Part shown: one piece after another, positions 18,046-37,613 of the stretch
Layout: each line of letters begins with the position of its first letter
How positions within the stretch are numbered: the stretch's first letter is position 1
Source: an uncultured Hormoscilla sp.
Lineage (GTDB): Bacteria > Cyanobacteriota > Cyanobacteriia > Cyanobacteriales > Desertifilaceae
NCBI GenBank assembly: GCA_963921275.4
Contig: OZ001293.3
Coordinates: 3,488,001-3,552,000 of the forward strand
Direction of reading: 5' to 3'
DNA: 64,000 bases
Program-made: the position numbers and the translations under genes
The notes under the pieces: model-generated
Database searches by the model: none
The model's input: the letters and a program-made list of their open reading frames with translations, nothing else
What the model was told of the DNA's origin: nothing

Positions 18046-18916
18046 GGATGGGGTCGAGCCGGGAATCGCTTCCCGACCCTCCCTTGAGGAACCGGACTTG
18101 CGATTTTCACCGCATCCGGCTACTGGGTACTAGGCCCTTTTCATAGGTAGACTTAATAGGAATTACTTCCGTTAGCCCTTGCCGCCTGTCTTTTCTTCCC
18201 TTTCCTGGTTTAGCGAGTGGTTGTTCTGATAACCGTTAGTATCACCATTTTCAAGTCAGTTTTACCAGTTATCCATACCTTATCCTCCACTTGCGTTTCG
18301 GATTAGTTCCGTGGCTTTTTAGGATTACTCATTCCAGCAGCTTCCTAGTATCACCGACCCACGTCAGCGCTGGCTACCCAGCATCATCTACATTACTGTA
18401 GATGTTATCCCAGGAATTACCCCGGGCATTCGCTTCTTGGGCCATCCCTCCCCCCGTGGCTTGCGCTTAACATCTAACTTGTCCTGATGGACAGCACACG
18501 AGAGGTTACTTCGTTCCCTAACAACATTTCGCGATACCTTTAGGTCCACACTATACCCCGGGAGCTATTTGAGTACTATATTAGCCAGAGTCTAAAACTA
18601 ATACTAGCTACCATTTCCTTTTTAGGCCAGCGCATATAGCCTTATTTCGCTGGTTCCTTATAACGAGGCTTGCACATGTTTGCCTGCTCTAACCTTGGAT
18701 ATCTTTCCTAGCGGCGTCACCGGCTTAGGCTGCCAGTTATCCTACATTTGAGTCCTCGCTTAGCACCACGATGATGTCGCTTCGTAGCACCGAGGACCGG
18801 TGTCACCCCCGTACCTGGGGGGAGGGGAATTTAACCCCCATGCGGTCAGAGTTCCCGGCTAATGAAACCGGGCTAGCGTTCCGTGTTTGACCACGTTAGG
18901 CTAGAACGAATCACAC
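18046..18916 (-). mobile_element. ORF-less group II intron 1 (871 nt), antisense to host gene
   Basis: Minus strand starts GTGTGATTCG, has DV GTAGCCGGATGCGGTGAAAATCGCAAGTCCGGTTC and DVI ending CTCGACCCCATCC; removal gives in-frame [14 protein letters not shown]. Confidence 0.93.
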
Positions 18917-19736
18917 AGTTCCCATCAAGGGTTGCTTCAAGGTGACGCCTTAGCAGGGCTATCCGGTAACAACAGTGCCGAAGTGATGCGGATGTTCGCC
19001 CAGATCGAACCCCACTATCAAAGCATGCTGGGTGCTGCCAACCAGATTATTCGCACTGATAATGGCGATATCTCGCCCTACGTGCAAAGCATTCTGGCTA
19101 ACGAAGCTGACTTTTTAACAGGCATGGACGCGATCGTCTTTCAGTACGACGAAGAGGCAAATGCTCGCGATTCGCAACTCGAAAGACTCCAACTGACCTT
19201 ACTGTATATCACGCTGGGACTGCTGTTGGCAGAAGGAATATTTATCTTCCGTCCCGCCGTCCGGGAACTGGGTCAGAAAATAAAAACACTTATGGCAGCG
19301 GACGCACAGAGGAACGAACTGCTCAAGGATCTAGAACGGAAGAACCTCGCGATCGACCTGGCCCTGACTGAAGCCCAATCGGCCACTCGCATCAAATCAG
19401 ATTTTCTGGGGGTGATGAGCCACGAAATCAATACGCCCATGAACGGCGTGATGGGCATGACAGGATTGCTATTAGACACTCAACTAGATGAAGAGCAGCT
19501 GGAGTACGTGCAAACCATCCGTAAAAGTGGAGAGGATCTGCTGACAATGATAAACGATATTCTCGACTTCTCCAAGATAGAGGCAGGCAAGCTAGAACTC
19601 GAAGTTGGGGATCGCGCGCGATCTGCGCGAGTGCATTGAGGACTGCCTAGATTTAGTAGCCCAGAAGGCATCAGAAAAGGGGCTGGATCTGGCATACCTT
19701 ATTGATGAGGGAGTTCCCCATGCCTTAAAGGCAGAT

Positions 19737-20672
19737 GTGCGATTCGTTCAGGCGTAAACTGGCGACGGTGAAGTCTGGTCTGGTTTCATTTGCCGGATAA
19801 CTCTGGTTATCATGGGGGTTAAATTTTCTCTCCCCAGGTGTGGGGGGTCGAGGGTACTACCGGTCCTTAGTGCTGCGGAGTCACATCGCCGTGGTGCTCC
19901 GCTAGGACTTAAATGTAGGATAGCTAGCAGCCTAAGCTAGTGACACCGCGCTAGGAAAGATGCTCATGGTTAGAACAAGCGAACCTGTGAAAGCTTCGTT
20001 AATAAGAACCAGCGGAATAAGGCTTATACGCTGGCCCAAAAGGGAAATGGCAGTTAGTGTTGGTAGTATTTGCTTACCAGCATCGCACTCGAAGAACTCT
20101 CCGGGTATAGCAGGAACCTAAAAGCATCGAGAAATGATACCAGGGAACGAAGTAACCTCACGTGAGCTGTCCCCATTTGGACCAGTTAGATGTAAAGCGC
20201 AAGCCGCGAAGAGGAAGGATGTTCTAAGAAGCCAACGCCTGGGGTAATGCCTGGGATATGCAGACGTGGGACGGATATGGTAAGAAGCCTTTGGTGAAAG
20301 TAGCCCTAACACGTCGCAAAACTTAGGAGAAATCCAAAAGTATGAATATGGACTAGAGTCTCAGCCGGGTAAAGTTCAGAGCCCCGATAAATTGCCAGAA
20401 TGGGGAAATGTTAGAGAAGAGCGGCTAGAATGGTTTGCTGAACTACCCTCCGCGATCGCGCAGCGTGCGCGCAGCGCATACCTTCCGGAGCTGAAATCAT
20501 TAACGGTCCAATAGGATTGACCATAAGAGGTAAAATTACAGAGGGTAAGGGGAATACGGGGTAACCTAATTATTGATGATGATATGCCTAAGGACAAGCC
20601 CCAGCGGTGAAAGTCGCAAGTCCGGAACTGCTCTTGGAGGGTTGGGGAGTGATTTCCAGCTCGACCCCGACC
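19737..20672 (+). mobile_element. ORF-less group II intron 2 (936 nt), damaged domain V
   Basis: GTGCGATTCG start, CTCGACCCCGACC end; removal gives ALKAD|VTRVRQILANL. Confidence 0.92.
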
Positions 20673-34987: not shown

Positions 34988-35961
34988 AATTCACTCCTCG
35001 ATGATTGATTCAGGGTGCCCATCGCTTCTACCACTTGCCCAGAGATAAAAGGCAGGATGGCGGATGATTGACTTTGAGCTTTCCCCTCTGTAAACACTAC
35101 CAATAAATAGGGTTGCTTGTCTTTAATTTCTATGTAGGCGCAGTCATGGCGGACTTGGCTGTTACTGGCTTTTGGCACCAGTCTGCTGGGGCATGACCAA
35201 AGCCGGGCATCGGTGGGGAGTCCGCCGCCGAGGAAGCTGGTGTATGAATGGTTGGGGTCTGTTTCTAAATCATCTGGGTTGAGGGTCCGGTGAATTAGAT
35301 TCATCATGGCCTGGGTTGCCTGGGAGGATACGGCGACACCGCCTACTATACTATGGAGCAGGCGGGCGGTGGCATTGGTGGTGAGCATATTGCGATTTTC
35401 TTGTCTCGAGCCCAAAAAGGCCCGATCGCGTCCGTAGGCACCGTCACTCCAGGTTTTTTGATTGACGTTGATGCTCTCAAATTCTGGCCAACCGAGGGAT
35501 TGGAAGTAACGGTTGACGATATTGCGCTGGAACTTCCAGGTCTCAAAGGGTCCAGGGGGCAGTTCTGGACCGCTAGTAGTGCCAGTGAGGACATCTACCA
35601 CAAGACTGGTGGCGTCGTTGCTGTCTCGAACAATCATGTCACGAATGGCTCGTTCCAAGTCAGCTCCAGTTTCGATCATGTTTTTGTCTCGCCACTCATA
35701 GATAGCTACCAGATAAAATAGCTTGACCACATGGGCGGGGTAAATGCGTTCCACGCCACGATAGCTGAAACCTCGGACTTGGTGTCTCCAGAATTCGGCA
35801 GTAGAGAGGGCACCGCCAGTGTTGACGGGGAAAGGTGGATCGTAGAGGATCCAGGTAAGGGCAATTTGGTTGCGGGCTAGTCCTGAGAATTGTGCCCAGG
35901 TCTTCTCCAGGATGCGATCGCCCAATTTTTCTAGTTGTTCGTCTTTGCGGAAGAAAATCAT
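34984..35961 (-). CDS. Serine hydrolase, class A beta-lactamase-like
   Basis: YPAHVVKLFY (Ser of SxxK replaced by His), SNDAT, RHDCAYIE. Confidence 0.8.
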   Translation of the reverse strand: MIFFRKDEQLEKLGDRILEKTWAQFSGLARNQIALTWILYDPPFPVNTGGALSTAEFWRHQVRGFSYRGVERIYPAHVVKLFYLVAIYEWRDKNMIETGADLERAIRDMIVRDSNDATSLVVDVLTGTTSGPELPPGPFETWKFQRNIVNRYFQSLGWPEFESINVNQKTWSDGAYGRDRAFLGSRQENRNMLTTNATARLLHSIVGGVAVSSQATQAMMNLIHRTLNPDDLETDPNHSYTSFLGGGLPTDARLWSCPSRLVPKASNSQVRHDCAYIEIKDKQPYLLVVFTEGKAQSQSSAILPFISGQVVEAMGTLNQSSRSEL

Positions 35962-37613
35962 GGTTGAATTACTGCAAGCAAGCCGAGGCTCTGCTCAATC
36001 TACCACTGTTGAGTACAGTTGCCGCGTCAATCTGGATCTGTATGATGGGTCTGAATGTGCTAGTTTAGCAACCCAGGCTGCTGCGGGGCGTCAGTTGCGA
36101 GTGCTTTCGGTGCCACCAGGCCAGGAGGCTGTAGAAGTCTGCTTGTGCGAGGATGATTATCGCTGCTGGCTGTCAGGGCTAGATTTGCCGAAGCTGTCCT
36201 TAGCAGAAATGCCTTATCGGGCGATCGCCCTTTCGGACGCTGAGATTAAAGAACGCTTGCCAGGGGCGATCGCCTTTGCGCAAGAGGCCATGCAGCAGGT
36301 TAATTATTACCTTTGGGGCGGTACAGTTGGACCTAACTACGACTGTTCTGGTTTGATGCAGGCTGCTTTTTGCTCAGTAGGTATTTGGTTGCCTAGAGAT
36401 TCTTATCAGCAGGAGGCGTTTGTGCAGGAAATCCCAATAGTAAAATTACAACCAGGAGACCTAATTTTCTTTGGTTCGGCAGAGAAGGTTAACCACGTGG
36501 GACTATATTTAGGTGGTGCGATTCGTTCAGGCGTAAACTGGCGACGGTGAAGTCTGGTCTGGTTTCATTTGCCGGATAACTCTGGTTATCATGGGGGTTA
36601 AATTCCCTCTCCCCAGGTGTGGGGGTAACACCGGTCCTTAGTGCTGCGGGGTCACATCGCCGTGGTGCGGAGCTAGGACTTAAATGTAGGATAGCTGGCA
36701 GCCTAACCCAGTGACGCCGCTAGGAAAGATGCTCATGGTTAGAACAAGCGAACCTGTTAAAGCCTCGTTACATAGAACCAGCGGAATAAGGCTTATACGC
36801 TGGCCCAAAAGGGAAAATGGTAGTTAGTGTTGGTAGTCATCTATTGCCAGCATCGCACCCAAAGAACTCCCGGGGTATAGCAGGGGCCTACAAGCATCGA
36901 GAAATGATACCAGGGAACGAAGTAACCTCACGTGAGCTGTCCCCATTTGGACCAGTTAGATGTAAAGCGCAAGCCGCGAAGAGGAAGGATGTTCTAAGAA
37001 GCCAACGCCTGGGGTAATGCCTGGGATATGCAGACGTAGGACGGATATGGTAAGAAGCCTTTGGTGAAAGTAGCCCTAACACGTCGCAAAACTTAGGAGA
37101 AATCCAAAAGTATGAATATGGACTAGAGTCTCAGCCGGGTAAAGTTCAGAGCCCCGATAAATTGCCAGAATGGGGAAATGTTAGAGAAGAGCGGCTAGAA
37201 TGGTTTGCTGAACTACCCTCCGCGATCGCGCAGCGTGCGCGCAGCGCATACCTTCCGGAGCTGAAATCATTAACGGTCCAATAGGATTGACCATAAGGGG
37301 TAAAATTACAGAGGGTAAGGGGAATACGGGGTAACCCAATAATCCTACTGATGACAACAGCTTACCAACCAGTAGCCGGATGCGGTGAAAGTCGCAAGTC
37401 CGGTTCCGAAAGGGAGGGTTGGGGAGTGATTCCCAGCTCGACCCCGACCAGGGCAAGTACATTCATAGTTCCGGCAAGGATATGGGCAGAAATGGCATCG
37501 GCATTGACCTCTTATCGGAGCAAGGAGATGCTATTAGTCAAGCTTATTATCGCCTGTTACGGGGTGCTGGGCGGGTGCTTACCAGTTATCTACCAGGGGA
37601 TGGTAATTGGTGA
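35960..37613 (+). CDS. NlpC/P60 (C40) peptidase, split by intron 5; join(35960..36515,37450..37613), 239 aa
   Basis: YLWGG..NYDCSG, LPRDSYQQ, PGDLIFF, NHVGLYLG-E-GKYIHSSG; spliced length 720 nt with no other lesion seen. Confidence 0.9.
36516..37449 (+). mobile_element. ORF-less group II intron 5 (934 nt), intact
   Basis: GTGCGATTCG start, DV GTAGCCGGATGCGGTGAAAGTCGCAAGTCCGGTTC, ends CTCGACCCCGACC. Confidence 0.95.

Follow-up and report, generated by a model that had tools for sequence, protein, structure and literature searches.

ORF-less group II introns in cyanobacteria

Group II introns that lack an open reading frame (ORF) have been described in the cyanobacterium Thermosynechococcus elongatus, in which Mohr, Ghanem and Lambowitz (2010; PMC2882425) studied the ORF-less TeI3 and the ORF-containing TeI4 introns. 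According to that paper, 17 ORF-less copies are present among 25 intact introns, and some of them are defective in domain V or VI. The target specificity of the introns has diverged, insertion into other mobile elements occurs, and the reverse transcriptases (RTs) splice and mobilize degenerate ORF-less introns. Here, we report a computational analysis of five ORF-less group II introns, c1 to c5, located in a stretch of 64,000 nucleotides (nt) from an uncultured Hormoscilla sp. (contig OZ001293.3 of assembly GCA_963921275.4, positions 3,488,001 to 3,552,000 of the forward strand), which is referred to as the window. An earlier reading of this DNA, made from the letters alone and called the sequence-only reading below, had described the five elements as a recently spreading, non-autonomous family that depends on a helper RT encoded elsewhere in the genome; mobilization of ORF-less cyanobacterial introns in trans, which it took as established, is indeed published for T. 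elongatus in PMC2882425. We consider it likely, with a probability of roughly 0.8, that the five copies, which fall into three subfamilies, belong to a non-autonomous group II intron that has lost its ORF, is of the IIB/chloroplast-like type, arrived by RNA-guided insertion and would use an RT supplied in trans.

The T. elongatus introns and the window family are both cyanobacterial, the former having a structure of IIB type and the latter one of putative IIB type, and both comprise many ORF-less copies that appear to derive from ORF-containing relatives. In both, divergence of the exon-binding sites (EBS) directs the introns to different targets, and domain V or VI is defective in some of the copies. 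Other introns, as well as non-essential DNA rich in insertion sequences (IS), serve as insertion sites both in T. elongatus and at a locus of Hormoscilla sp. GUM202 (L008), in which one family copy lies antisense exactly in the EBS1 loop of another (positions 2683-4481). However, the identity between copies ranges from 69 to 99.7% in the window, compared to 85 to 100% published for T. elongatus, and the lineage differs, as the closest relatives of the window family among the matches listed are found in metagenome-assembled genomes (MAGs) of Hormoscilla sponge symbionts. Unlike in T. elongatus, pseudogenes host four of the five copies in the window, and one copy has the antisense orientation relative to its host gene. 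Moreover, mobility was tested by experiment in T. elongatus, whereas the window family is known here from sequence alone. The findings on c1 to c5 leave the known mechanism unchanged, and the five copies appear to be a further example of the pattern of intron spreading already described in T. elongatus.

A likeness also exists to Trichodesmium, a cyanobacterium with much non-coding DNA and several group II introns, which include ORF-less and nested ones according to PMC4649490. In contrast to the twintron described there, no intron is nested in another one in the window, and the inner copy at L008 is antisense and thus cannot be spliced as a twintron. A survey states that some cyanobacteria contain more than 100 group II introns and that ORF-less introns have increased in certain genomes. 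In our literature search, no paper was found that links Hormoscilla with group II introns, and the word "intron" is absent from the main text of the Hormoscilla genome papers.

Five homologous introns with a conserved fold

The window is cyanobacterial, with psaA, psaB and psaL on board, and has a GC content of 47.6% over its 64 kb. The five introns are arranged as follows:

18046-18916, minus strand: c1, ORF-less group II intron of subfamily A, 871 nt, antisense in a plus-strand hybrid histidine-kinase pseudogene; domain V 18090-18121, domain VI 18052-18082, EBS1 18588-18593, EBS2 18656-18661 (all minus strand)
19737-20672, plus strand: c2, ORF-less intron of subfamily B, 936 nt, sense in the kinase pseudogene; domain V degenerate
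21430-22300, plus strand: c3, ORF-less intron of subfamily A, 871 nt, sense in the kinase pseudogene; domain V 22225-22256, domain VI 22264-22294, EBS1 21753-21758 (all plus strand)
30458-31359, plus strand: c4, ORF-less intron of subfamily C, 902 nt, sense, within a PAS domain of a decayed sensor-kinase remnant
36516-37449, plus strand: c5, ORF-less intron of subfamily B, 934 nt, sense in a gene for an NlpC/P60 (C40) peptidase that is apparently intact; domain V 37374-37405, domain VI 37413-37443, EBS1 36838-36843 (all plus strand)

The sequence-only reading had placed five inserts starting with GTGYGATTCG at these positions; all of them were recovered, each with a GTGYG 5' end, and proved to be homologous to each other. 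The exact motif occurs six times in the window, i.e., at the five 5' ends and once at 60800. If up to one mismatch is allowed, nine occurrences are seen versus 5.72 expected, and nine of 100 shuffles reach this number; the motif alone is thus not significant, and it is the homology between the copies that carries the case. This homology spans the whole length of the five inserts and divides them into three subfamilies: c1 and c3 are identical at 868 of 871 positions (99.7%), c2 and c5 share 93% and c4 and c5 84% identity, and c1 or c3 are 69 to 73% identical to the rest. The five copies lie inside 19.4 of the 64 kb, a local clustering that is modestly unusual (p ~0.03, calculated post hoc under uniform placement).

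A family alignment was built from c1 to c5 and four full-length relatives from Hormoscilla MAG loci. The RNAalifold consensus of these nine copies contains 209 pairs, with 96.8% of the cells paired, and shows the following six-domain layout:

Alignment columns 7-442: domain I
Alignment columns 447-521: domain II
Alignment columns 528-616: domain III
Alignment columns 617-965: domain IV
Alignment columns 972-1003: domain V
Alignment columns 1012-1042: domain VI

Pairs that are changed on both sides number 68, compared to 37.6 +/- 3.6 in shuffles (none of 500 reaches 68) and 9 to 12 in slid controls; fold prediction and covariation count share one alignment, which is a bias in favor of the structure, but the margin is large nonetheless. 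A foldable six-domain structure with covariation, the absence of which the sequence-only reading would have counted against itself, was hence found.

In c1, c3, c4 and c5, the 3' 98 nt fold as a canonical domain V hairpin with a 2-nt bulge, which is followed by domain VI. The Rfam model RF00029 (Intron_gpII, covering domains V-VI, gathering cut-off 40 bits) matches these four copies with 44.4, 46.4, 44.3 and 47.7 bits, respectively. In the consensus fold, two bases of the 3' strand of domain VI remain unpaired (columns 1039-1040), eight to nine columns before the alignment end; the bulge is also present in the single-sequence folds of c1, c3 and c5, and the fold of c4 comprises the central domain VI stem only. 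A bulged branch-point A in domain VI is predicted from these folds, and c1, c3, c4 and c5 are predicted to retain the canonical catalytic domain V and the branch-point domain VI. The sequence-only reading had ascribed domain V/VI motifs to all five copies, which does not hold for c2: no RF00029 match was obtained for this copy even in a relaxed rerun at E<=1, its 3' 98 nt do not form the domain V hairpin (z +1.19), and its domain VI is weakened, too. Due to the degenerate domain V, c2 is predicted to be a dead copy that is unable to splice. With regard to the subclass, the family may belong to the IIB/chloroplast-like introns, based on an EBS3-like alignment column, general features of the class and the domain set of the RTs.

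Insertion sites and host genes

The introns interrupt three host loci:

17806-23211, plus strand: hybrid histidine-kinase pseudogene hosting c1 to c3; PilJ-type sensor, HisKA, HATPase, two receiver domains and Hpt (Pfam)
30344-34069, plus strand: PAS/HisKA remnant hosting c4 (Pfam, tblastn of P0391)
35960-37614, plus strand: NlpC/P60 gene hosting c5; exon 1 35960-36515, exon 2 37450-37614; SH3_16 and NLPC_P60 (Pfam)

At all five junctions, removal of the intron recreates the sequence of the orthologues without a gap and without duplicated bases. The orthologues thereby match the predicted spliced sequence, as the sequence-only reading had demanded, and its claim that excision leaves no target duplication stands. 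The restoration of the host reading frame, which it had also proposed, has to be restricted, as c1 is antisense and the hosts of c1 to c4 are otherwise lesioned.

For the kinase gene, the window was queried by tblastn with two intact orthologues, P0121 of 929 amino acids (aa) and P0123 of 961 aa, and the junctions of c1, c2 and c3 proved to be exact. The orthologues of this gene have a length of 905 to 961 aa, are uninterrupted and are 82 to 85% identical to it. In addition to the introns, the gene in the window is disrupted by two premature stops, one at 17953-17955 and the other a TGA that replaces a conserved Trp codon at 21168-21170, and its frame shifts near 19613; it is therefore regarded as a pseudogene. 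In the proposed course of events, the insertion of c1 and the point lesions would have left the kinase gene in this state; as c1 is antisense to its host gene, it is not spliceable from that mRNA. A CGCGCGC stretch was noted as the cause of the frameshift near 19613.

Compared to its homologue P0391, the host of c4 is missing ~53 residues at the start as well as the HATPase end, and tblastn of P0391 located frameshifts near 31690-31710 and 32210; the junction of c4 itself is contiguous with this homologue. An IS630-like remnant lies directly upstream of the gene. Directly after the HisKA remnant, at 32876-34069, a GGDEF domain of which only profile positions 54-158 are present is followed by a complete EAL domain, and this arrangement suggests that a deletion may have fused two sensor genes.

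The in-silico spliced host gene of c5 aligns end to end with uninterrupted orthologues; nine orthologues were aligned, together with the truncated ORF P0001 of the window. The orthologues include a Hormoscilla protein of 239 aa with 93% identity, and at the junction the spliced product does not differ from P0002. Thus, four of the five copies sit in pseudogenes, and c5 alone interrupts an apparently intact gene; c5 would also be the only copy whose splicing is still needed for the host protein. The antisense orientation of c1, the loss of c2 and the decay of four of the five hosts were not part of the sequence-only reading. Introns of this kind are missed by ORF-based annotation, which results in truncated gene calls such as P0001, the NlpC/P60 gene cut at c5.

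Target recognition

Every column of the alignment was scanned against the exon flanks with no prior assumption. The best partner of exon positions -6 to -1 was found at columns 359-364 (49 of 54 pairs, next best 32), and that of positions -13 to -8 at columns 290-295 (42 of 54 pairs, next best 34). On average, EBS1 forms 5.44 of six pairs with its own exon and 2.67 with the exons of the other copies, and only 4% of these latter combinations reach five pairs. Pairing between EBS1 and the intron-binding site IBS1 is complete in c2 and c5 (6/6 each) and amounts to 5/6 in c3 and c4; for EBS2 and IBS2, c1, c3 and c4 form 5/6 pairs each. The variable column 399 pairs with the first base of the 3' exon in Watson-Crick fashion in six of nine copies, using four pair types, with one G-U pair and two mismatches, and fits a putative EBS3. 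Since the EBS loops differ between the copies, the family has diversified its targets. The targets of c1 and c3 agree at nine of 14 positions, as counted by eye from the flanks, and because of this resemblance c1 looks like an intron of the c3 type that made an ectopic hop to a similar site on the opposite strand.

In the mechanism that we favor, each copy would have arrived by RNA-guided insertion, either by retrohoming or by ectopic retrotransposition, in which EBS1, EBS2 and EBS3 would base-pair with target DNA on both sides of the insertion point, namely with ~13 nt immediately upstream and with 1 nt downstream. It could be argued that the copies were instead spread by duplication or recombination at the DNA level, given that c1 and c3 are near-identical, inverted and only 2.5 kb apart, so that gene conversion is possible. 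However, flanking DNA is not common to any of the sites, the boundaries are base-exact when compared to the orthologues, and the EBS loops of each copy fit its own flank, which makes a DNA-level spread exceedingly improbable and speaks for the arrival via RNA-guided retromobility.

Loss of the ORF and proposed spread of the family

Domain IV of c1 to c5 has a length of 231 to 328 nt and contains no ORF, and hence none for an RT/maturase. A Pfam screen of 54 window ORFs and exon pieces did not reveal any RVT_1 domain, and when two intron RTs were used as tblastn queries, nothing similar to an RT was detected in the window (best E 7.7), in agreement with the sequence-only reading, which had reported no RT/maturase in the copies or the window. 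Judged by their domain IV, c1 to c5 are non-autonomous, and this part of the earlier proposal is supported as well. A free-standing HNH ORF at 24584-25081 (minus strand, 165 aa) was considered as an RT remnant and rejected, as only the HNH motif is common with the RT/maturase P0247 (17 of 42 identities). A relic of the RT start, in the form of a Shine-Dalgarno sequence with an ATG, was looked for by eye in the alignment of domain IV and was dropped for being too weak.

The domain IV sequences are conserved across different insertion sites: they are 100% identical in c1 and c3, 95% identical in c3 and the copy at L007 (with no gap columns), 95% in c2 and c5 and 82% in c4 and c5. That distinct sites contain one and the same ORF-less variant of domain IV implies that the ORF was lost before those copies moved, and movement after ORF loss, for which these comparisons make a strong case, would in turn require a protein supplied in trans. 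Mobilization in trans is therefore well supported, although it is deduced from the sequences of the copies. Alternatively, all copies could have been autonomous at the time of insertion, with an ORF of their own that each of them lost separately later on, without any helper. Relatives that contain an ORF and agree with the family in the 5' end and the 17-mer do exist in other cyanobacteria (L009, L002 and L011, see below); however, independent losses would not yield the same domain IV at different sites, as observed for c1 and c3, c3 and L007, and c2 and c5, so that this scenario is very improbable and movement after loss of the ORF is the preferred explanation.

The sites of the introns are empty in Hormoscilla orthologues of 82 to 93% protein identity. 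Together with the 99.7% identity of c1 and c3, these empty sites support a recent spread of the family, as the sequence-only reading had assumed, and the copies may be active at present.

A blastn search of c1 to c5 against the window yielded no further intron fragments; the only additional matches were to a 26-nt GC-rich repeat. This repeat is inserted in domain IV of c2 (20443-20468) and c5 (37223-37248) and recurs at 13017-13042 and 48834-48859, within two elements of the IS4/IS5 type, in each case inside the first ORF (12286-13083 and 48070-48890). The copy at L013 contains a similar GC-rich insert in domain I.

RT-encoding relatives and candidate helpers

A scan of public genomes with the invariant domain I 17-mer returned at least 15 loci, and the genome of the window itself was not among the matches listed. 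At least seven of the loci derive from three Hormoscilla MAGs and contain family copies of ~72 to 94% identity. At least three derive from other cyanobacteria, namely Cyanobacteria bacterium RU_5_0 (L009), a Coleofasciculaceae MAG (L002) and a Stenomitos plasmid (L011), and are RT-encoding relatives with the same 5' end. They share with c1 to c5 the first 12 bases, the domain I 17-mer and an alignable domain I; in contrast to c1 to c5, they possess an ORF of 603 to 613 aa in domain IV and a different domain V loop. Their RTs contain the domains RVT_N, RVT_1 and GIIM, and HNH in L002. Five non-cyanobacterial loci (L001, L004, L005, L012 and L014) were rejected as members of the family, as their similarity does not extend beyond the 17-mer, which they seem to share by chance. 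In Hormoscilla sp. GUM202, L015 contains the family 5' end, an IS transposase gene and a frameshifted N-terminal RT fragment at 499-2071 on the minus strand and appears to be a decayed RT-encoding intron; the same arrangement of intron fragments is found at L003 of another MAG.

The decayed RT fragment of L015 was used as the query of a protein search, which listed 120 matches, 19 of them bearing a Hormoscilla name. Six RT/maturase ORFs among these matches are located on a contig whose length, 6,879,066 bp, is exactly that of the contig that carries P0001 of the window. One of them, P0247, is a full-length protein of 596 aa with RVT_N, RVT_1, GIIM and HNH domains and a YADD motif, and is 49% identical to the RT of L009; P0243, P0257 and P0294 on the same contig are truncated. 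Where it overlaps domain V, the C-terminus of these RTs reads PDEVKV, which agrees better with the domain V loop of the family (PDAVKV as translated from c5) than does the PDELNG of the more distant intron at L009; this resemblance is suggestive only of a link between the candidate RTs and the c1 to c5 family. The sequence-only reading had called for a search for a related RT-encoding intron, which was successful in other cyanobacteria and, for the same genome, led to the six ORFs on the contig of equal size; its postulate of a helper RT elsewhere in the genome thus gains support. According to our proposal, the copies would be spliced and reverse transcribed by an RT/maturase/HNH protein supplied in trans by full-length relatives on the same chromosome, and a helper of this kind is likely, with P0247 as a candidate.

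Several observations weigh against this view of the family. The link to the helper was drawn from a contig of the same size and from a motif of six residues. At L015, the IS separates the RT fragment from the family 5' end and most of domain I is gone, so that their physical link is weak. EBS1 and IBS1 of c1 form only 4/6 pairs, and the degenerate c2 and the pseudogene state of four of the five hosts indicate that the family may be fossil in part. The Rfam check suggested by the sequence-only reading was positive for Intron_gpII in four of the five copies, but the group II D1-D4 models gave no match in the window at E<=1; these models are lineage-specific, and their failure to match has no bearing on class membership. 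Finally, the introns end with CC (AT in L010), and the usual 3' end of group II introns is AY.

If decay were the rule, all copies would be immobile relics that persist in decaying, non-essential DNA and have no current helper-dependent activity. Such a fossil family would be in line with the loss of domain V in c2, the pseudogenes that host four copies, the truncated RT ORFs P0243, P0257 and P0294, and the fragmented and nested copies at the Hormoscilla loci. Yet, c1 and c3 differ at just three of 871 positions, canonical domains V and VI are retained in four copies, pairs changed on both sides are maintained across the copies, c5 has to be spliced for the product of its host gene, which is intact apart from the intron, and P0247 is full-length and has its catalytic motifs. 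We therefore regard an entirely fossil family as unlikely and prefer a non-autonomous family that is served by a helper in trans.

The window might also sample an expansion of group II introns, most of them ORF-less, across the whole genome of a cyanobacterium with decaying genes, in which a few surviving RT/maturases serve many degenerate copies and new insertions, antisense and intron-in-intron ones among them, are tolerated under relaxed selection. We put this forward only tentatively and with more doubt than confidence; if true, it would provide a mesophilic natural model of intron invasion at small population size, complementing the heat-assisted spread in T. elongatus. The copies described here exemplify insertions that were not purged, namely an antisense copy, a dead copy and an accumulation in pseudogenes, and Hormoscilla would represent a second, probably mesophilic cyanobacterial lineage in which ORF-less group II introns with diverged targets have multiplied.

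Other features of the window

60800-60826, plus strand: c6, short 5'-end fragment of a related intron with the same first 12 bases (exact motif match)

The sixth GTGCGATTCG in the window, located at 60800, was rejected as a full copy, as its match to intron-associated DNA (L015 and L003) is limited to 27 nt, and no Rfam match was obtained for c6 at E<=1. The fragment is followed by a decayed, low-GC and frameshifted IS630-like transposase remnant (~61100-62000) and, just beyond this remnant, by a POTRA_2 gene of the ShlB type, which is truncated and lies on the minus strand (62001-62771). Between c3 and c4, a patatin-like phospholipase gene at 26760-27744 is divided between two ORFs that overlap each other (26760-27260 and 27247-27744) and looks like another frameshift pseudogene. 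Next to it, a match to an Rfam family of plastid 3' untranslated regions at 27863-27917 reaches 58 bits (cut-off 68) on the strand opposite to a gene for a long-arm transfer RNA (tRNA) at 27828-27917, and most likely represents the complement of this tRNA.

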